Shown piece after piece: positions 5,189 through 10,870 of a stretch of DNA of 39,015 bases; the stretch's first letter is position 1, and each line of letters starts with the position of its first letter. Origin of the DNA: a virus; IMG/VR virus record IMGVR_UViG_3300045257_000314, positions 1-39,015 of that record; one strand, given 5' to 3'. The translations under genes and the position numbers were made by a program. The notes under the pieces were generated by a model. The model worked only from the letters and a program-made list of their open reading frames with translations, was not told the DNA's origin and searched no databases.

Positions 5189-5451
5189 GACTCGTCCTGC
5201 TCGAGCCAGGCGATCAATTCGCGCAGCGTGGGCACGAGCTCGGCGAGCCGCGCGGTACTGCGCAGCACGTCCGAGCCGCCCGCGCGCCAGCCGGCCAGGA
5301 ACGCCTCGCGCAGGTCGAGCGACGGTAAGGGAAGCTGCTCGGCCTGCTCGAACCGCGCCCAGGCTCGGGAGACGCGTTCGTCCACGGTCAGTGTCCTCGG
5401 TTCTGGAATGGGCACGCTCGAGTCGAGAAACATCGGCGACGGTGGGCGCAC
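5185..5451 (-). CDS. Hypothetical acidic helical protein
   Basis: 88-aa ORF. GTG at 5451 lies 2 nt after the RHH stop. An alternative ATG is at 5433. Confidence 0.55.
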   Translation of the reverse strand: MRPPSPMFLDSSVPIPEPRTLTVDERVSRAWARFEQAEQLPLPSLDLREAFLAGWRAGGSDVLRSTARLAELVPTLRELIAWLEQDES

Positions 5452-5453
5452 GG

Positions 5454-5633
5454 CTACGCCGCGACCGAATCAGCTACAGGTTCAGTTGTTTCGAGGGCGC
5501 GTCGAGCGATCTCTTCGTCAATCTTCAGGTCCAGCAAATAATTGGCCTGTTCGCGCACCGAGCGACGGTCGTCGGTCGCCATGCGACGCAGCCGGTCTTC
5601 TTTGTCGGGCCGAATCTCCACCTGGAATCGCAT
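5454..5633 (-). CDS. Ribbon-helix-helix (Arc/CopG-like) DNA-binding protein
   Basis: MRFQVEIRPDKEDRLRRMATDDRRSVREQANYLLDLKIDEE shows a beta-strand/helix/helix pattern. ATG at 5633 lies immediately downstream of the left inverted-repeat unit, which carries phased CCGGCA repeats. Confidence 0.7.
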   Translation of the reverse strand: MRFQVEIRPDKEDRLRRMATDDRRSVREQANYLLDLKIDEEIARRALETTEPVADSVAA

Positions 5634-5635
5634 GC

Positions 5636-5702
5636 TCGATAGCGTGCACCCGCCGGCACCCCTCCGGCAGGACACAGGAGGACAAAGTGTTTATTTGTCC
5701 GC
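5636..5702. repeat. Left arm of a ~65-bp imperfect inverted repeat (hairpin plus phased CCGGCA repeats plus leader)
   Basis: tcgatagcgtgcacccgccggcacccctccggcaggacacaggaggacaaagtgtttatttgtccgc aligns with the reverse complement of 6596-6660. Shared blocks: cgccggcaccc, ccggcaggacacagg, ggacaaa and tttgtccgc. The hairpin stem is conserved and the 7-nt loop differs. Confidence 0.85.
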
Positions 5703-6200
5703 TGGCCTCCCCGGCGGGTCCACGGGCCAGGTCGACGGCGGCCAAAAATCGGGCCTGAGACCGTGCGGGTCGGCCATGTTGCGCGAGGTGGTTTTGGGCG
5801 CCGGACCACCCGCGGCAAAGATCATTTCTTTGGTGACGCGGTCGTCGGGACTGAGGTGATTGTCGCGCCGCACGATCGCCTCAAGCCGCTGATAGAACGC
5901 TCGAAAAGTGTGCCATTCACGTAGCTCTTTGTTCTGCGGCAGGCGCGCACGCTTCGTCGGCTCCCTGGGTGGCGGCACCGCGTTCCGTTGCGCCAGGAGC
6001 TCGAGCGTATGGGCGATGTCGGCCTGCGCGGCAGCGAGGTCCTGGAGCATCCGCAGCAAGCGCGGATCGCTCTCGGAAAACATGGGCAGTTGCCTATCGT
6101 CAGGCACCGGCATGGACTCCGGCAGCACGACAGCGGACACATTGAAATCTGTCCCCCGTGCCGGCATCGGATACACGCGCCACCCGCCCCGCCTCCACAT
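5691..6200 (-). CDS. Hypothetical early protein with a possible C-terminal helix-turn-helix
   Basis: The tracked ORF opens at GTG 6239, inside the palindrome. ATG 6200 or ATG 6167 are more likely starts. VTKEMIFAAGGPAPKTTSRNMADPHGL looks HTH-like. The stop TAA lies in the loop of the left hairpin. Confidence 0.5.
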   Translation of the reverse strand: MWRRGGWRVYPMPARGTDFNVSAVVLPESMPVPDDRQLPMFSESDPRLLRMLQDLAAAQADIAHTLELLAQRNAVPPPREPTKRARLPQNKELREWHTFRAFYQRLEAIVRRDNHLSPDDRVTKEMIFAAGGPAPKTTSRNMADPHGLRPDFWPPSTWPVDPPGRPADK

Positions 6201-6219
6201 GTCAGGAGTTGATTGTAGA

Positions 6220-6243
6220 ACATGTGTTCCAGGGAACACATGT
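6220..6243. promoter_or_regulatory. Perfect 11-bp-arm palindrome (ACATGTGTTCC-ag-GGAACACATGT), a candidate operator
   Basis: Read directly from the sequence. It lies at the head of the leftward early operon in the divergent region opposite the XRE gene. Confidence 0.6.
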
Positions 6244-6318
6244 CTTCTGACTCGGGCGCGGTGCCGCCGGGCCGCGTCTACTCAGCGATTGCCTACTGTA
6301 GCCGAACTGAAGCAATAA

Positions 6319-6371
6319 CGCGACTGTTTCGCGACTTGAGAGGCACGTTCTGGGCACTAGTCGCGTAGTCG
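6319..6371. promoter_or_regulatory. Cluster of CGCGACT / AGTCGCG / TAGTCG motifs, candidate repressor-binding sites
   Basis: CGCGACT at 6319 and 6330 (11 bp apart). Its inverse AGTCGCG at 6359. TAGTCG at 6358 and 6366. Confidence 0.4.
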
Positions 6372-6395
6372 TAGCGTTGGTGATCCTGTACCGTA

Positions 6396-6596
6396 GTGCT
6401 TGTGCCGGCTTTGCTACGCCGTTATCGAGATGCGCTCTCGCTCTCCCAGGGGGAGTTGGCCAAGCGCGCCGGAATAGCCCGTACGACGGTGAACAAACTC
6501 GAACGGGGCCAGGCTCAGCCGCGACCCTCGACCCTGCGCAGACTGGCCAAGGCGCTGCACGTCAAGCCTACCGACCTGCAGCCGCAAGATCCCTAG
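6396..6596 (+). CDS. XRE-family (Cro/CI-type) helix-turn-helix regulator
   Basis: 66 aa with a GTG start (GTG 6402 is also possible). LSLSQGELAKRAGIARTTVNKLERGQ. The tail RPSTLRRLAKALHVKPTDL is paralogous to the 8824 gene. Confidence 0.8.
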   Translation: MLVPALLRRYRDALSLSQGELAKRAGIARTTVNKLERGQAQPRPSTLRRLAKALHVKPTDLQPQDP

Positions 6597-6660
6597 CGGA
6601 CAAAATTCCGGTTTGTCCGCCTGTGTCCTGCCGGGCAGGGTGCCGGCGGCGCACACTCGA
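6596..6660. repeat. Right arm of the ~65-bp inverted repeat
   Basis: gcggacaaaattccggtttgtccgc hairpin (9-bp stem), then TGCCGG at 6629 and 6641 (12 bp apart), then a leader that resembles the one before the RHH ATG. Confidence 0.85.
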
Positions 6661-6664
6661 CGGA

Positions 6665-6820
6665 ATGGCCGATCGGGAACTGACGCCGGATGAGCGGCTC
6701 TCGGAAGTAACCCGCCTACTCGCGCTGGGCGCTCGCCTGATCCTGGAGAAGCGACGCGTCCAGCAAGTGCCCACAGCTCAGAAAGAGCCGGAGAGGGCCG
6801 ACGCTAGTTCGCGAAGTTGA
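6665..6820 (+). CDS. Possible small protein (51 aa) launched from the right repeat arm
   Basis: The ATG sits about 5 nt beyond the repeat, mirroring the RHH ATG beyond the left arm. MADRELTPDERLSEVTRLLALGARLILEKRR. Hand-counted GC1/2/3 of about 83/43/73% over the first 30 codons. It overlaps the integrase 3' end convergently by 43 nt. Confidence 0.3.
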   Translation: MADRELTPDERLSEVTRLLALGARLILEKRRVQQVPTAQKEPERADASSRS

Positions 6821-8493
6821 GTAGCGGGAACGATATGTCTGGTCCCACACGTATCGTTCCCGCTACATGCCTCCATCTCCGAGTCAAAGCGCAACGTGTT
6901 GGTATGCGGGTGCTCACGGTAGGCCCACGCGCCGGTCTGCACGTGTAGCTGGTTACCGATCAGCGCACGGTATTGCCGCAGGCGCCAGCGCCGGTTGAAG
7001 CCCTCGCCCTCGGCCTCGATGCGCACGCCGATGAAGAGCAGGCGATAGATGCGGTGCTGCTGCTCCCACGGCAGTGCATCGAAGGCGTCGAGGGGCGACT
7101 CGAGCAGGACCTGGCACATAGCCGCCAGGTCGGCGTCGGTGTCCGCCGCGATCTTCTCCTCGGCGACCTGGTCTCGAAGTTCTGCCACCTCGGCCTCGAC
7201 CTCACCCAGGCGAGCAATCAGCGACGCCGGCGGCGTGGTGGCGCCCCAGAGTTGATCGTTGATCCACTTCGCTCGGTCCTCCAGGAACGCGAGCCGTTGA
7301 GCCGCGGGAGAAGAGAGGTGCGCTTGCTGTTGCGCGCGCAGCTCGGCAGCGACCGCCTGCGCGTCGTACATGACCCGCGGCAGTTCATGGCGCAGCAGTT
7401 GAGCGGCAACGGTCGGGCTCAGCGCCTGCGGGGCTGAGCAAAGCACACCCTTGCGTCCGCGGAGCGTGCCCATGGCCGAGCACGCATAGGTGCGGTGGCC
7501 GCGAGCGACCATCGGCTGACCGCAACTGTGGCACTCGAGGACCCCCGACAATGGATGGGGGTGACGGGTTTCGACAGTACGTACGCTGCCAGGGTGGTCG
7601 AATTTCGATCGCCAGCGGCGGACCTGGGCCGACGACCAGTACGCAAGCTCAGGTACATGGTGCAGGAAATCCTTGGGCAGGCCCGTCTGCGGGTCAGTAG
7701 CGAAGCGGTGCCAGACGATCGAACGCTTCTTGAGGCGCGTCCCGAAGGTAAATGTGCCGGTGTAGATCGTGTTCCGCAGCAGGTAGCGTAGGCTCTGGAC
7801 GCTCCAGTGGGTAGTTGTCCCTCCGCGACCTTTGAAAGCGGGCCGCGACGGACCATAGGTGTTGAGCCGGCGTGCCATCTGAGCCAGCGAGTCGCTCGAT
7901 TCAAAGAGGCGCCCGAGCTCGGTCATCAGCTCGTCCTGTCCGGGATGTTTGACGACGCGACGAACGATGCGTCGGCCCTCATCTGGCTTCAAGACTTCAG
8001 TCATGTACCCAATCGGCGGCCGCAGGTAGACCGGCTCGTGTTCCAATTTCTTGAAGAGTCCCGACCAGAAGGTATTGCGGATGCTGCGCCAGTCGATTCC
8101 AGCCAGCATGCACTGGAACTGAAACTGCAGCAGATCGTCATCGTTGCGCAAGTCGTAGTCACGATCCCAGGTAGCGAACAGACCACCGGCGTCGACAATA
8201 CGGCGGGCGATGTCGCCACCATCCATGCCGAACTCATCGCGCGTCAGTCGCTTGACGTCCAGGGCGCCGATCCCTTGAATGCGTCCCTGGCGCAGGTCCT
8301 CGAACATCTGCAGAGCGACAGTGCGCTTGGACAGATGCGCGCCTGAAATGCCCTGCTCGTCATAGACGCGGACCTGATAGCCGCGGTCCTCGAGGCGCTC
8401 GACCATGTCGAGCTGGGTCTCGGAGCGGAAGTTGCCGATCTGGCGAACCGTGGAGTTACGGATGGTCAGGCCAATCGTGGGTACAGGAGTCAT
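6778..8493 (-). CDS. int: Large serine recombinase (phage integrase)
   Basis: ATG at 8493 overlaps the upstream stop (ATGA). Resolvase-domain motifs: LTIRNSTVRQ (catalytic Ser), YDEQGISG, VKRLTRDE. A recombinase domain follows, then the zinc ribbon CHSCGQPMVARGHRTYACS...LCSAP and a long coiled coil. Confidence 0.9.
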   Translation of the reverse strand: MTPVPTIGLTIRNSTVRQIGNFRSETQLDMVERLEDRGYQVRVYDEQGISGAHLSKRTVALQMFEDLRQGRIQGIGALDVKRLTRDEFGMDGGDIARRIVDAGGLFATWDRDYDLRNDDDLLQFQFQCMLAGIDWRSIRNTFWSGLFKKLEHEPVYLRPPIGYMTEVLKPDEGRRIVRRVVKHPGQDELMTELGRLFESSDSLAQMARRLNTYGPSRPAFKGRGGTTTHWSVQSLRYLLRNTIYTGTFTFGTRLKKRSIVWHRFATDPQTGLPKDFLHHVPELAYWSSAQVRRWRSKFDHPGSVRTVETRHPHPLSGVLECHSCGQPMVARGHRTYACSAMGTLRGRKGVLCSAPQALSPTVAAQLLRHELPRVMYDAQAVAAELRAQQQAHLSSPAAQRLAFLEDRAKWINDQLWGATTPPASLIARLGEVEAEVAELRDQVAEEKIAADTDADLAAMCQVLLESPLDAFDALPWEQQHRIYRLLFIGVRIEAEGEGFNRRWRLRQYRALIGNQLHVQTGAWAYREHPHTNTLRFDSEMEACSGNDTCGTRHIVPATQLRELASALSGSF

Positions 8494-8747
8494 GGACGGT
8501 AGCCGCACGGACAGTCGGACGATGGTTCACGCCACTGACGACATCTGGGGCATTCGATGAGCGCCACATTCGACGATCGGTCGCCTGGCCGCTCGCTCGC
8601 ATGACTCCGTTCGAGTCGCTCGACCGACCAGTCGTGGAGCATCACCAGCACCTCGACTAGCGGGGTTACGTCGTTGCTATAGGTTCGGTGAATGATGCGG
8701 AACTCCTTCGACGGAGACTCCTGATCCTCAGGCGGTACACTCGTCAT
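8490..8747 (-). CDS. Small Cys-rich protein co-transcribed with the integrase (directionality-factor candidate)
   Basis: 85 aa with an ATG start. CPRCRQWREPSSDCPCG lies at the C-terminus. The stop overlaps the int ATG. Confidence 0.55.
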   Translation of the reverse strand: MTSVPPEDQESPSKEFRIIHRTYSNDVTPLVEVLVMLHDWSVERLERSHASERPGDRSSNVALIECPRCRQWREPSSDCPCGYRP

Positions 8748-8787: not shown

Positions 8788-8825
8788 GCCCCGGCCGTTC
8801 CCATGGCGGCGGGGCTTTTCTTTTT
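8788..8825 (+). terminator. Intrinsic-terminator-like hairpin plus T-run, read on the plus strand
   Basis: gccccggccg / cggcggggc stem (one bulge) with loop ttcccatgg, followed by ttttcttttt. The T-run abuts the stop of the minus-strand XRE gene. Confidence 0.55.
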
Positions 8826-9030
8826 ACTCGTCTCGAGCTGGGTCCATCAGGTCGCTGGGCTTGACGCCGAGGGCCTTGGCCAGTTTGCGGAGCGTGGTCG
8901 GTCGCGCCTCCTGGAGGCCGGTTTCGAGCCGCTGAATGGTCGACTGCGTCACGCCCGCCTGGTCGGCCAGCTCGCGTTGCGTCAGAGCTTTACGTTCGCG
9001 CAGGGGTCGCAAGCGCGATATCACAATCAC
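8824..9030 (-). CDS. XRE-family helix-turn-helix regulator, paralogue of 6396..6596
   Basis: LTQRELADQAGVTQSTIQRLETG; RPTTLRKLAKALGVKPSDL. The start is uncertain: GTG 9030 (6 nt after a TACACT -10-like box), GTG 9024 (after GGGAG), or the tracked GTG 9057. Confidence 0.75.
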   Translation of the reverse strand: MIVISRLRPLRERKALTQRELADQAGVTQSTIQRLETGLQEARPTTLRKLAKALGVKPSDLMDPARDE

Positions 9031-9051
9031 TCCCGAAGTGTAGCAGAATGC

Positions 9052-9081
9052 TTGCACGCCTTAACAGCGTTCTGATATGAT
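9052..9081 (+). promoter_or_regulatory. Sigma-70-like promoter TTGCAC-N18-TATGAT for the rightward early block. The predicted start site coincides with the ATG at 9088 (leaderless).
   Basis: -35 at 9052-9057 and -10 at 9076-9081, with only 6 nt between the -10 and the ATG and no SD. The inverted repeat CAGAATGC (9044) / GCGTTCTG (9067) brackets the -35. Confidence 0.45.
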
Positions 9082-9087
9082 TACGGC

Positions 9088-9270
9088 ATGAACACCAACA
9101 CGAATCCTCTGGACCGCATCCTGAGCAAGCGGCCGCCGCTCTACCAGACCAACCACCTGAGCGACCGCGCCCTGTGCGGTCAAGTCAACGCCCGCGGCAT
9201 GGTCTGCGCCGCCACCAACAACCACGACGGCAAGTGCGACTTCGTGGTCCGCACCACTCGCGAGGACTGA
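9088..9270 (+). CDS. Small hypothetical protein (60 aa, three Cys)
   Basis: ATG ORF and first gene of the plus-strand block. CGQVNARGMVCAATNNHDGKC. Confidence 0.55.
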   Translation: MNTNTNPLDRILSKRPPLYQTNHLSDRALCGQVNARGMVCAATNNHDGKCDFVVRTTRED

Positions 9271-9273
9271 ACC

Positions 9274-9552
9274 GTGAACGTGACTCTCTCGACCGAAAAC
9301 CCCCGCTCTCTGAAAGCTTTGCAGCTCACCGCCGGCGCGGCCGACTGGCTGGCCCTGCCTGATGGTGGGTATGGCATCCCGAGCCAGCGCCACGACGGCG
9401 CCTTCTACGCCGCGGACGCCACGACCTGCACCTGCCCCGATGCCACGTACCGCAGCAGCGAGTGCAAGCACATCCTGGCGGTTCGTCTGCACCAGATCCT
9501 GCAGACCGCCGTTACGCAGCCAGCGCCGCGCCGGCTCAAGGTCGTCGCGTGA
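9274..9552 (+). CDS. SWIM zinc-finger protein
   Basis: 92 aa with a GTG start. CTCPDATYRSSECKHILAV matches the CxCx(n)CxH pattern. Confidence 0.7.
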   Translation: MNVTLSTENPRSLKALQLTAGAADWLALPDGGYGIPSQRHDGAFYAADATTCTCPDATYRSSECKHILAVRLHQILQTAVTQPAPRRLKVVA

Positions 9553-9941
9553 TGATCGGCACGAACGGCGCCGTCGGCGAGGTCGTCGAGGGCCTGGTCG
9601 AGAGCGCCAACGACCGCGGCATCAAAGTCGGCGGCGAGTGGCGCAATCAATCGAAATTCCACCCCGTGGATCTGCCCGAGCGCGGCGCACGCGTCCGCCT
9701 CGAGCTCGACCGCGCCGGCTTCATCAAGACCCTGCAGGTGCTCGAGCAACCCGCTGTGACAGACAACCTGTCGCGCGACCGCACCATCACCCGCCTGGCC
9801 GTGCTCAAAGCCGCGGCCAATTTCCTGGGCCAGTTGTCGCAGACGCGCGAAGAGGTTCGCAGCGAACACGTACTCACTCTGGCCGATAAATGGCTCGCCT
9901 GGGTCGACCAGGCCCCGCAACCTTCGAAGGAGGCATTCTAA
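9552..9941 (+). CDS. Hypothetical protein (129 aa)
   Basis: ATG at 9552 shares a base with the SWIM stop. The N-terminal half is beta-rich (GIKVGGEWRNQSKFHPVDLPERGARVRLEL). Confidence 0.6.
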   Translation: MIGTNGAVGEVVEGLVESANDRGIKVGGEWRNQSKFHPVDLPERGARVRLELDRAGFIKTLQVLEQPAVTDNLSRDRTITRLAVLKAAANFLGQLSQTREEVRSEHVLTLADKWLAWVDQAPQPSKEAF

Positions 9942-10396
9942 TGACGACATTGATGGCACGCGCTTACGGCGGCACCGGACTCAGCCTCGAGGACCTCGAC
10001 GCCTTGCCGCGGCACGAACGGGAAAGTATTGTCGCCGGCACCATCAGCATGCTGCGCGGGCAGCTCGCCGAGCTCCGCACCCAGCTCCTCGAGTCGGAGG
10101 GCATGCTCAGACAGGCCATGCTCGAGCGCGGCGCCACCGTCGCCGACGCCGGAGCGTGGACCGTGAAGCTGACCACGCGACGCTCCTACGCGTACGACGA
10201 GGAAATGATCAGCGCCCTGCAGGCGTTCGTCGACCCCGATGTCTACGATGACGCGGTGCGGCGGATCGTCACCACGAAAATCAACAAGACCAAGCTGAAC
10301 GCGCTGGCCAAACGCGGCGGCGAGATCGCGGCGATCATCGAGGCTGCCACCACCGACGTGGTGGACGGCTACACGCTCGAGGTGAGTCGTGCCTGA
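9941..10396 (+). CDS. Coiled-coil protein resembling siphovirus Gp157-family proteins
   Basis: GAAGGAGG (9926-9933) lies upstream. The ATG at 9941 shares a base with the upstream TAA. An N-terminal coiled coil is followed by WTVKLTTRRSYAYDEE...TTKINKTKLNALAKRGG...GYTLEVS. Confidence 0.4.
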   Translation: MTTLMARAYGGTGLSLEDLDALPRHERESIVAGTISMLRGQLAELRTQLLESEGMLRQAMLERGATVADAGAWTVKLTTRRSYAYDEEMISALQAFVDPDVYDDAVRRIVTTKINKTKLNALAKRGGEIAAIIEAATTDVVDGYTLEVSRA

Positions 10397-10649
10397 TCCT
10401 GATCCTGGTCGGACCCATTATGTCGAGGATGGTTGCGCACCCTCCCACGATCCCCGCATCGACGGCGAAATGTGCGTTTTCTGCGGTGAGGACACGGACG
10501 AGCACCGCAACCCCTTCGGCTATCTGGCCAGCGGCGTGTCCGGTTGTCGGAACCACACCGACGCGGAAATCCTGCGCGCCTGGTGCGAACAGCGGCTGGC
10601 GGATGACGCCGAGCCAGCGTTTGCTAGCGACGAGGTTAGCCGCGCGTGA
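10389..10649 (+). CDS. Small Cys/His-rich protein with an N-terminal DPGxTHxVxDGCxPxHDPRID motif
   Basis: 86 aa with a GTG start. PGRTHYVEDGCAPSHDPRIDGEMCVFCGEDTDEH. The motif is shared with 38078..38446. Confidence 0.6.
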   Translation: MPDPDPGRTHYVEDGCAPSHDPRIDGEMCVFCGEDTDEHRNPFGYLASGVSGCRNHTDAEILRAWCEQRLADDAEPAFASDEVSRA

Positions 10650-10870
10650 CCAATCGCATTGGCTGGCACGGCCCGTTTCCGCGTTTCGGCTGGGGGAAGT
10701 GCCTGCCCTGCGGCGGAAAGCGCCTACTGTTCTACTTCAACGACCAGTACCTGGTCGGACGGGACCAGGGGCGCCGCGCGGTCAGTGAGCCCCGGTGTGG
10801 TCCCTGCATCGACACCTGGCTGGCGGCACGCCGCGAACGACTGCAGGACATGCCCCAGGATCACGTTTAG
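10646..10870 (+). CDS. Zinc-ribbon protein (CxxC...CxxC)
   Basis: 74 aa. The GTG overlaps the upstream TGA (GTGA). CLPCGGK...CGPCID. Confidence 0.6.
   Translation: MTNRIGWHGPFPRFGWGKCLPCGGKRLLFYFNDQYLVGRDQGRRAVSEPRCGPCIDTWLAARRERLQDMPQDHV

Follow-up and report, generated by a model that had tools for sequence, protein, structure and literature searches.

The window analysed here is the whole stretch of 39,015 nt of viral DNA in IMG/VR record IMGVR_UViG_3300045257_000314, and the feature under study is a cassette of ~1 kb within it (positions 5636–6660), in which two divergent genes are enclosed by a pair of inverted repeat arms. The gene read leftward encodes a protein that we call ORF182 and the gene read rightward encodes an XRE-type regulator; the left arm leads into a gene for a 59-aa protein, and the right arm leads into a small gene (orf51) that is convergent with the gene for a large serine integrase (int). 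A first-pass annotation had interpreted the arms either as duplicated terminator/operator units or as the borders of an invertible segment. We propose that they are probably not recombination sites; instead, an operator-promoter unit would be present in three copies, of which two form the arms. This proposal is built on the geometry of the units and on their conservation in related phages.

The inverted arms and the intragenic third copy

In an ungapped repeat search the arms were found as two stretches of 63 nt (5641–5703 and 6595–6657), which are 71% complementary and lie 891 nt apart. Gapped local alignment of 5636–5702 with the reverse complement of 6596–6660 gave a score of 58, compared to a mean of 14 (standard deviation 2.6) and a maximum of 28 in a background of 5,000 random pairs of 70-nt segments. 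The previously described inverted repeat of ~65 bp is therefore real, including all the identical blocks named for it; the longest block identical between the arms is 15 bp. Each arm is built around a palindrome of 21 bp, GGACAAA-gtgttta-TTTGTCC in the left arm (5680–5700) and GGACAAA-attccgg-TTTGTCC in the right arm (6598–6618). These are the only two matches to GGACAAA-N7-TTTGTCC in the 39-kb window, even with up to three mismatches allowed, and the seven GGACA(A/C)A heptads that the whole window contains are confined to 5670–6628, a region with an expected number of 0.2.

The palindrome is the upstream part of a longer composite unit, GGACAAA-N7-TTTGTCC-N3-T(G/T)TGTCC, which abuts the hexamer (C/T)GCCGG and is followed after 17 nt by CAnnCT and, ~7 nt further on, by a start codon. 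The unit of the left arm, O1 (minus strand, 5631–5700), heads the gene of the 59-aa protein and consists of the heptads GGACAAA (5694–5700), TTTGTCC (5680–5686, after a 7-nt spacer) and TGTGTCC (5670–5676, after three further nt), the hexamer TGCCGG (5664–5669), a 17-nt spacer (5647–5663), CACGCT (5641–5646), 7 nt and the ATG (5633–5631). The unit of the right arm, O3 (plus strand, 6598–6667), heads orf51 and has the same composition: GGACAAA (6598–6604), a 7-nt spacer, TTTGTCC (6612–6618), three nt, TGTGTCC (6622–6628), TGCCGG (6629–6634), a 17-nt spacer (6635–6651), CACACT (6652–6657), 7 nt and the ATG (6665–6667). The start codons thus lie where they had been placed before, at 5633 on the minus strand for a gene of 59 codons and at 6665 for an ORF of 51 codons. 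The remark that both enclosed genes end in or at a palindrome is also correct: the stop codon of ORF182 (5691–5693) lies inside the spacer of the O1 palindrome, and that of the XRE gene (6594–6596) ends 1 nt short of the O3 palindrome. As for the two CCGGCA hexamers reported for each arm, both are present (5653 and 5664, 11 bp apart; 6629 and 6641 on the other strand, 12 bp apart), but only the copy proximal to the operator is conserved in the relatives. In this phage the two arms additionally share 12 nt (GGGTGCCGGCGG) within the 17-nt spacer, which is otherwise variable; this suggests a past exchange of sequence between the arms. These shared nucleotides explain the apparent length of the arm repeat, which scores 60 in this phage and 24–56 in most relatives.

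The view of the arms as a duplicated pair has to be extended, since the copies are genuine but a third one, in direct orientation to O1, had been overlooked. This unit, O2 (minus strand, 6081–6154; site proper 6119–6154), lies within ORF182 at codons ~16–27. It comprises two heptads (6148–6154 and 6135–6141) separated by a 6-nt spacer, a degenerate third heptad (6125–6131), TGCCGG (6119–6124), a 17-nt spacer, GACGAT (6096–6101), 12 nt and an in-frame ATG (6083–6081), which encodes the Met of a conserved LPMF peptide and is found 12–15 nt past the hexamer across genomes. Aligned with one another, the three copies read GGACAAA, 7 nt (O2 of this phage has 6), T(T/C/G)TGTCC, 3 nt, (T/G)TTGTC(C/G) and (C/T)GCCGG; in the relatives O2 is conserved as GGACA(A/G)ATTTC.AATGTGTCCGC.TTTGTCCTGCCGG. 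The reading frame is open across O2 in 12 of 12 genomes, i.e. O2 is coding sequence. Its G+C content at third codon positions (GC3) is 0.53, compared to 0.79 in the rest of ORF182, and codons ending in A or T (GGA, CAA, ATT, AAT, TTT) are kept at O2 in a gene that is otherwise GC3-rich, which argues for selection on the DNA sequence itself. The JGI gene caller annotated exactly the 130-aa ORF182 product (P0001), and the corresponding region is retained in a relative that has lost much of the cassette (see below). O2 may hence act as an internal promoter for a 130-aa isoform of ORF182 nested in the longer one. The conserved internal ORF182 peptide encoded by O2 is GQISNVSAFVLP, and the C-termini of ORF182 homologs (e.g. 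..NGQI, ..GQIL or ..PADK) are often encoded by the O1 palindrome, in differing frames. With both O1 and O2 coding for ORF182 residues, the putative operator DNA is written into the protein at two places.

Conservation of the units and alternative explanations

The phage is one of a family of soil phages that are uncultured, have genomes of ~39 kb and lack a close cultured relative. A blastn search with positions 5400–6900 against 50,697 phage records yielded no match, the nearest terminase from a cultured phage (large subunit, TerL) is 30% identical, and scans of 185,579 species genomes with a profile of ORF182 found no prophage copies. Our comparison is based on loci from twelve distinct phages, of which 11 possess the full cassette and one (L017, with L018 as a second contig of the same phage) is a deletion variant; in L003 the contig edge precedes XRE2, a second XRE gene, and most of the integrase. 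The gene order in the 11 full-cassette relatives is XRE2, integrase, small ORF, XRE, ORF182, 59-aa gene and early genes, and in all of them the cassette has the same orientation relative to int and the early operon.

The geometry of the units was tabulated for O1 from nine genomes and O3 from ten. In all 19 units the spacing (C/T)GCCGG-N17-CAnnCT is exact, although the sequence of the 17-nt spacer varies, and the distance from the second hexamer to an ATG or GTG is 6–9 nt, with 7 nt in 16 of them. Among the O1 units (9/9) both the 17-nt and the 7-nt spacings are invariant and the hexamer is CA(C/A/T)GCT; every one of the ten O3 units has the 17-nt spacer and CA(C/G)ACT, followed by 6–9 nt to ATG or GTG. 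The 7-nt spacer of the palindrome is A/T-rich in most O1 and O3 units. A thresholded scan for palindromic sites, which covered 5.6–8.5 kb and at most 39 kb of each of twelve genomes, returned at that threshold exactly three sites and no others in eight of them, always with O3 after the XRE stop codon, O2 at codons ~16–27 of ORF182 and O1 between the stop codon of ORF182 and the gene of the 59-aa protein; in the remaining four (L006, L010, L011 and L015) the copies found at these three positions are degenerate or variant. The architecture of three heptads is kept across phages whose ORF182 proteins are only 40–59% identical, and in diverged relatives the motif and its position are constant while the 7-nt and 17-nt spacers vary. 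In L010 the third heptad and the half-sites of the palindrome alike read GGACA(T/C)G, a parallel change that is more in keeping with a single protein recognizing them all than with an RNA stem.

The arms had originally been described as hairpins with a conserved stem and a variable loop, selected for their structure, and they could accordingly be seen as terminators or attenuators of the ORF182 and XRE transcripts, both of which have their stop codons in or at a palindrome. Folded in isolation, the hairpins reach -9.4 and -12.9 kcal/mol (z -3.3 and -4.0), but significance is lost when more of the surrounding sequence is folded with them (z -1.9 and -1.2), only three of the seven stem pairs are G-C, and there is no T-tract behind the stems. 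A terminator scan called neither arm, and no Rfam family matched them. Analysis of 24 distinct units revealed that the stem is 94% paired only through sequence conservation of both half-sites: covariation equals the mean of shuffled alignments (247 of 500 shuffles reach it), with a single compensatory cell, and the sole variable stem position is unpaired in seven of the 24 sequences. The third heptad, which lies outside the stem, has the same invariant TGTC core and is equally conserved, and O2 is located in coding sequence. We thus find no sign of selection on the hairpin and consider RNA structure an improbable explanation of the palindromes. Of the "duplicated terminator/operator" only the operator survives, as conserved repeats resembling protein-binding sites at the starts of outward-facing genes; the combination of conserved stem and variable loop is then the picture of a palindrome bound by a dimer, with a spacer that is not contacted.

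If a protein does bind the units, these might lack promoters of their own, and the bound protein could simply act as a roadblock that keeps ORF182 transcripts from running on into the early operon, and XRE transcripts from running on into orf51, in a manner similar to stoperators. The units are found exactly at gene-to-gene junctions devoid of a terminator, their hexamers match the sigma-70 consensus poorly, and the intragenic location of O2 is also compatible with such a function. On the other hand, a pure roadblock needs neither the exact 17-nt spacing nor a hexamer 6–9 nt before the start codon, which are found in 19 of 19 units, and the sites are three in number and not dispersed through the genome. 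We therefore regard a pure roadblock as a rather unlikely alternative to operator-promoter units.

The relation of the units to recombination can be judged from L001, where a tyrosine integrase (Pfam Phage_integrase) and an Xis-like gene with an HTH_17 domain (539–2349) replace the serine integrase and orf51, and where all three units are retained. Here the integration module has been swapped beside a conserved O3, and since L001 keeps the units next to a tyrosine integrase, they belong to the regulatory module and not to the serine recombinase. This bears on the suggestion that the cassette is an invertible switch, in which the recombinase or homologous recombination would flip the segment 5703–6595 and thereby exchange the promoter that faces the early operon. 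Such a suggestion was natural given inverted repeats of ~65 bp located 118 bp from a serine recombinase gene, and the 12 nt shared in the 17-nt spacers do hint at an earlier exchange between the arms. However, the arms are imperfect, a third copy within the segment is direct to O1, so that there are not just two inverted sites, and the recombinase is a 576-aa protein of the integrase type, for which 6821–6866, a sequence unrelated to the arms, is a much better candidate site. We also looked for the cassette in the opposite orientation, and none of the 11 full-cassette relatives has it flipped with respect to int and the 59-aa gene. The flipped junction, in which the outer left arm would adjoin the reverse complement of the 3' end of XRE, is absent from the metagenome_contigs and viral_contigs collections, but so is the native junction, hence this result has no bearing on inversion. 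Taken together with the arrangement in L001, these observations make inversion of the segment very unlikely.

Alternatively, a mobile immunity cassette could have the arms as its terminal inverted repeats, or the arms could be conserved borders that just promote the swapping of modules among phages. The central region and the XRE gene of this phage differ from those of the relatives while the arms are conserved, which would fit exchange of modules via the flanks. Nevertheless, the cassette encodes only XRE and ORF182 and no transposase, it is bordered by no target-site duplication or flanking direct repeats, it contains an internal third copy, and the arms include start codons of the flanking genes at a fixed position in all relatives. 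So far the cassette with its arms has not been seen at unrelated genomic sites, and we assign a very low probability to this explanation.

The deletion variant L017/L018 is a sister phage with ~96% identity over the flanking genes and 77–98% across all shared segments. Its deletion (seen at the locus L017 3310–4000) extends from the middle of the integrase gene to the left edge of O2 (window position 6158) and removes the rest of int, the palindrome that resembles an attachment site, orf51, O3, XRE and the ORF182 promoter, leaving O2 and O1. In place of XRE2 it carries a gene for a 71-aa CopG-like protein of the ribbon-helix-helix (RHH) type (RHH_5, just under the Pfam curated cut-off). Two independent samples contained the variant, which probably represents a virulent derivative; since this phage lacks the deleted region, propagation must be possible without it, as one would expect for a lysogeny module.

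Genes and other elements of the cassette and its surroundings

ORF182 (5691–6200, minus strand) is a protein of 169 aa with the ATG at 6200 as start codon, and its longest possible reading frame extends to 6239. The family defined by ORF182 consists of 37 metagenome proteins and matched no Pfam domain. The AlphaFold2 (AF2) model is good (predicted local distance difference test score, pLDDT, 85), but no fold in the PDB matched it with an E-value below 1. The C-terminal part is helical, conserved and looks like a helix-turn-helix (HTH), yet the putative recognition helix varies among homologs while the operator is constant. The promoter region of ORF182 (6212–6243, minus strand) contains a TACAAT -10 element (6212–6217) under a GAAC-N4-GTTC box (6218–6229), 11 nt before the ATG at 6200. 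A TAnnAT element that overlaps GAAC-N4-GTTC is found 7–12 nt upstream of the ORF182 start in 12 of 12 genomes (including L001–L015), all of which show the GAACnnnnGTTCTAnnAT pattern at this place. The box is part of what had been called a perfect palindrome of 24 bp: an inverted repeat does exist at 6220–6243, but it is of the 11-2-11 type, with a non-symmetric AG at its centre. In Gram-positive bacteria and Actinobacteria, GAAC-N4-GTTC serves as the LexA box (Cheo type). Its position over the -10 element suggests that ORF182 is under LexA/SOS control by the host, and the type of the box suggests a host of the Gram-positive or actinobacterial type.

The XRE gene (6396–6596, plus strand) encodes a 66-aa protein that was confirmed as a genuine HTH_3 regulator (E-value 1e-17). 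The divergent intergenic region between XRE and ORF182 harbors a cluster of CGCGACT motifs (6319–6365; copies at 6319 and 6330 and a reverse complement at 6359), which is specific to this phage; the intergenic region of the relatives has instead ACGT-rich motifs and a promoter of the TTGACA type. The sequence at 6240–6395 is unrelated to the region common to all other full-cassette relatives, which is ACGT-rich and contains TTGACACGT. Together with the diverged XRE gene, the inner cassette looks like a mosaic replacement between conserved flanking units.

The 59-aa protein is encoded by the first gene (5454–5633, minus strand) of the leftward early operon and belongs to a conserved family. It had been labelled as RHH, but this label finds no support in searches of Pfam, PHROGs and PDB profiles, which returned no match, or in an AF2 model from the single sequence, which is all-helical and of low confidence. 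The conserved N-terminus of the family, MR(M/F)QVEV, is compatible with a beta-strand without proving one. The operon headed by O1 comprises, besides the 59-aa gene, a gene for RecT (identified by Pfam in the relatives) and, past the point where the contig wraps around, the terminase and structural genes; it also includes methylase-like and transglycosylase-like genes, as read from the translations of the relatives alone.

On the other side, orf51 (6665–6820, plus strand) is a small gene behind O3, which is convergent with int and overlaps its 3' end. Its positional equivalents in the relatives encode 49–63 aa, several of them starting with MADP, with start or frame insecure in some cases; in most relatives the overlap with the 3' end of the integrase gene on the opposite strand is 27–59 nt. 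As the equivalent in L001 is an excisionase-type HTH_17 protein, we consider orf51 a candidate for the recombination directionality (excision) factor. The integrase (6778–8508, minus strand; 576 aa) was correctly recognized as a large serine recombinase: it has Resolvase and Recombinase domains, in addition to a weak, sub-threshold match to Zn_ribbon_recom, and it matches phrog_95. An exact-sequence look-up of the integrase returned no record. Within the last 30 codons of int, 14–30 codons before the stop codon and 1 nt behind the stop codon of orf51, we found a near-perfect palindrome of the 22-2-22 type (6821–6866; folding energy ~-36 kcal/mol, z ~-6), for which a search of Rfam returned just two chance sub-threshold matches to mir-503. 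It has the layout of the phage attachment site (attP) of serine integrases, its sequence is dissimilar to the arms, and imperfect palindromes exist at the corresponding position of int in L009 and L011. We regard this site, which is part of the 3' end of int, as a candidate attP; if this prediction is correct, the C-terminus of the integrase would be replaced upon integration. Several integrases of the family end in ssrA-like tails (..LSAAS, ..LLAAAS, ..LVLAA or ..VARAA).

XRE2 (8824–9057), a paralogue of XRE, lies upstream of int and is divergent from a short rightward operon (9088–10870) of six small genes, including one for a SWIM zinc-finger protein. Its recognition helix is strongly variable among the relatives, and the helix of XRE is unlike that. 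XRE2 may be the true immunity determinant.

Predicted operation of the units and comparison with known switches

In the arrangement that we favor, each unit would combine an operator of three heptads, at approximately -37 to -67, with a promoter in which the abutting (C/T)GCCGG occupies the -35 position and CAnnCT (GACGAT in O2) the -10 position. A start codon 6–9 nt after the latter hexamer corresponds to the geometry of leaderless mRNAs, so that both the promoter function and the leaderless starts are deduced here from spacing. O1 would face left and drive the 59-aa gene and a long early-to-late operon, O3 would face right and drive the small gene convergent on int, likely an excision factor, and O2 would fire within the 5' end of ORF182. 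One phage-encoded DNA-binding protein acting on all three units could switch these outputs together, and host LexA at the ORF182 promoter would link the module to the SOS response. The identity of the binding protein is a matter of subjective weighting: we regard XRE and the 59-aa protein as tentative candidates of equal standing, both being highly conserved in parallel with the operator, and ORF182 as an unlikely one. Activation and repression appear about evenly balanced. The operator located upstream (~-37 to -67) and the non-canonical -35 hexamer slightly favor activation, similar to lambda PRM or the CII-dependent promoters, and the location of the units in a lysogeny module favors repression, similar to lambda OL/OR. 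Canonical elements do occur elsewhere in the cassette, namely the TAnnAT of the ORF182 promoter (12/12 genomes) and the TTGAC(A) hexamers that the relatives have in their central region, which implies that the hexamers of the units are genuinely unusual for the host; with canonical elements nearby but not in the units, the unit promoters may depend on an activator.

Several points weigh against this reading. The -35-like and -10-like hexamers are non-canonical, and a scan for consensus promoters calls none; moreover, as no relative was detected in the 185,579 species genomes, the commonness of leaderless mRNAs in the host is an assumption. The fixed geometry could in part be due to the shared ancestry of duplicated DNA, and conservation of O2 is confounded by coding constraint. 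A recognition helix of XRE that, like the operator, is nearly invariant among phages that are ~50% identical is atypical for an immunity repressor. Finally, covariation between operator and regulator cannot separate XRE from the 59-aa protein: in L010, with its variant heptads, both of them differ, as does ORF182.

The general logic of the proposed module, with one regulator and repeated operators that flank the regulator genes, is classical. It resembles OL/PL and OR/PR of phage lambda, where one type of operator is found in mutually inverted orientation at two outward promoters on both sides of the regulator gene(s); as in lambda, one regulator would serve both arms, and cooperation over long range is conceivable. 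However, lambda has three tandem palindromes of 17 bp, while the operator described here is a 21-bp palindrome with an extra heptad 10 bp away, located upstream of and abutting the -35 hexamer and not over the core promoter. Furthermore, in the cassette one unit is intragenic, the starts are of the leaderless type, and no self-cleaving repressor similar to CI is present. A closer parallel in other respects is offered by the CII-dependent promoters of lambda (PRE, PI and PaQ), which are three dispersed promoters with poor -35 elements and direct repeats with a 10-bp period at -35, some of them inside coding sequence and one antisense to another gene. Their recognition sequence is TTGC-N6-TTGC, in contrast to the three heptads (-> <- <-) of the units; no CII homolog was detected in our phage, where activation would be predicted from the geometry. 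LexA-controlled induction modules are known from several phages, e.g. Tum of 186, the antirepressors of Gifsy, AntC of N15, and GIL01. ORF182 is similar to them in having a host-type SOS box over its -10 element, next to a gene for a small regulator that is not self-cleaving, but neither homology nor a similar fold could be detected between it and known antirepressors.

Inverted repeats around ~0.9 kb near a serine recombinase gene are reminiscent of the Hin/Gin/Cin systems and of inversion by serine integrases. In our case, however, the recombinase is a large one of the integrase type, the repeats are imperfect and accompanied by a direct third copy, and they are also found next to a tyrosine integrase. 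The stoperators of cluster A mycobacteriophages are many, asymmetric and dispersed, unlike the three dyad-symmetric sites confined to a cassette of 1 kb. We searched the literature for previous descriptions of the heptads as an operator and found nothing relevant. To our knowledge, no model phage has a three-heptad operator at -35, an operator copy within coding sequence, an exact 17-nt spacing between non-canonical promoter hexamers, or regulators without a known fold in such a module. A different switch, that of mycobacteriophage BPs, is reported (PMC4557955) to employ a repressor, gp33, which binds several regulatory regions and controls several promoters, with operators made of a palindrome and an additional variable half-site. 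The BPs switch is also tied to the placement of attP and to ssrA-like C-terminal tags, in a scheme of integration-dependent immunity (PMC4557955). In BPs, attP is located in the repressor gene and used by a tyrosine integrase, whereas the candidate attP described here is in the 3' end of a serine int gene, and the sequence and layout of the operators are unrelated. Lambda OL/OR, the CII-dependent promoters and gp33 of BPs come closest to the proposed module, which by sequence falls into none of their families.

A more far-reaching version of our proposal can be formulated, in which activator-dependent leaderless promoters form one regulon, a LexA-controlled regulator without a known fold fires it, and attP in the 3' end of int leads to replacement of a degron-like C-terminus of the integrase. 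We consider this combination speculative and rather doubtful; if true, the regulon would consist of an excision-factor gene that runs antisense to int, together with the early operon and the short isoform of ORF182, and the switch would be unlike those characterized to date. With respect to the family itself, the tempting interpretation of the cassette as an invertible lysis/lysogeny switch is removed. What takes its place is a concrete cis-regulatory map, on which three probable operator-promoter units are joined by a box of the LexA type and by candidates for an excision-factor gene and for attP.

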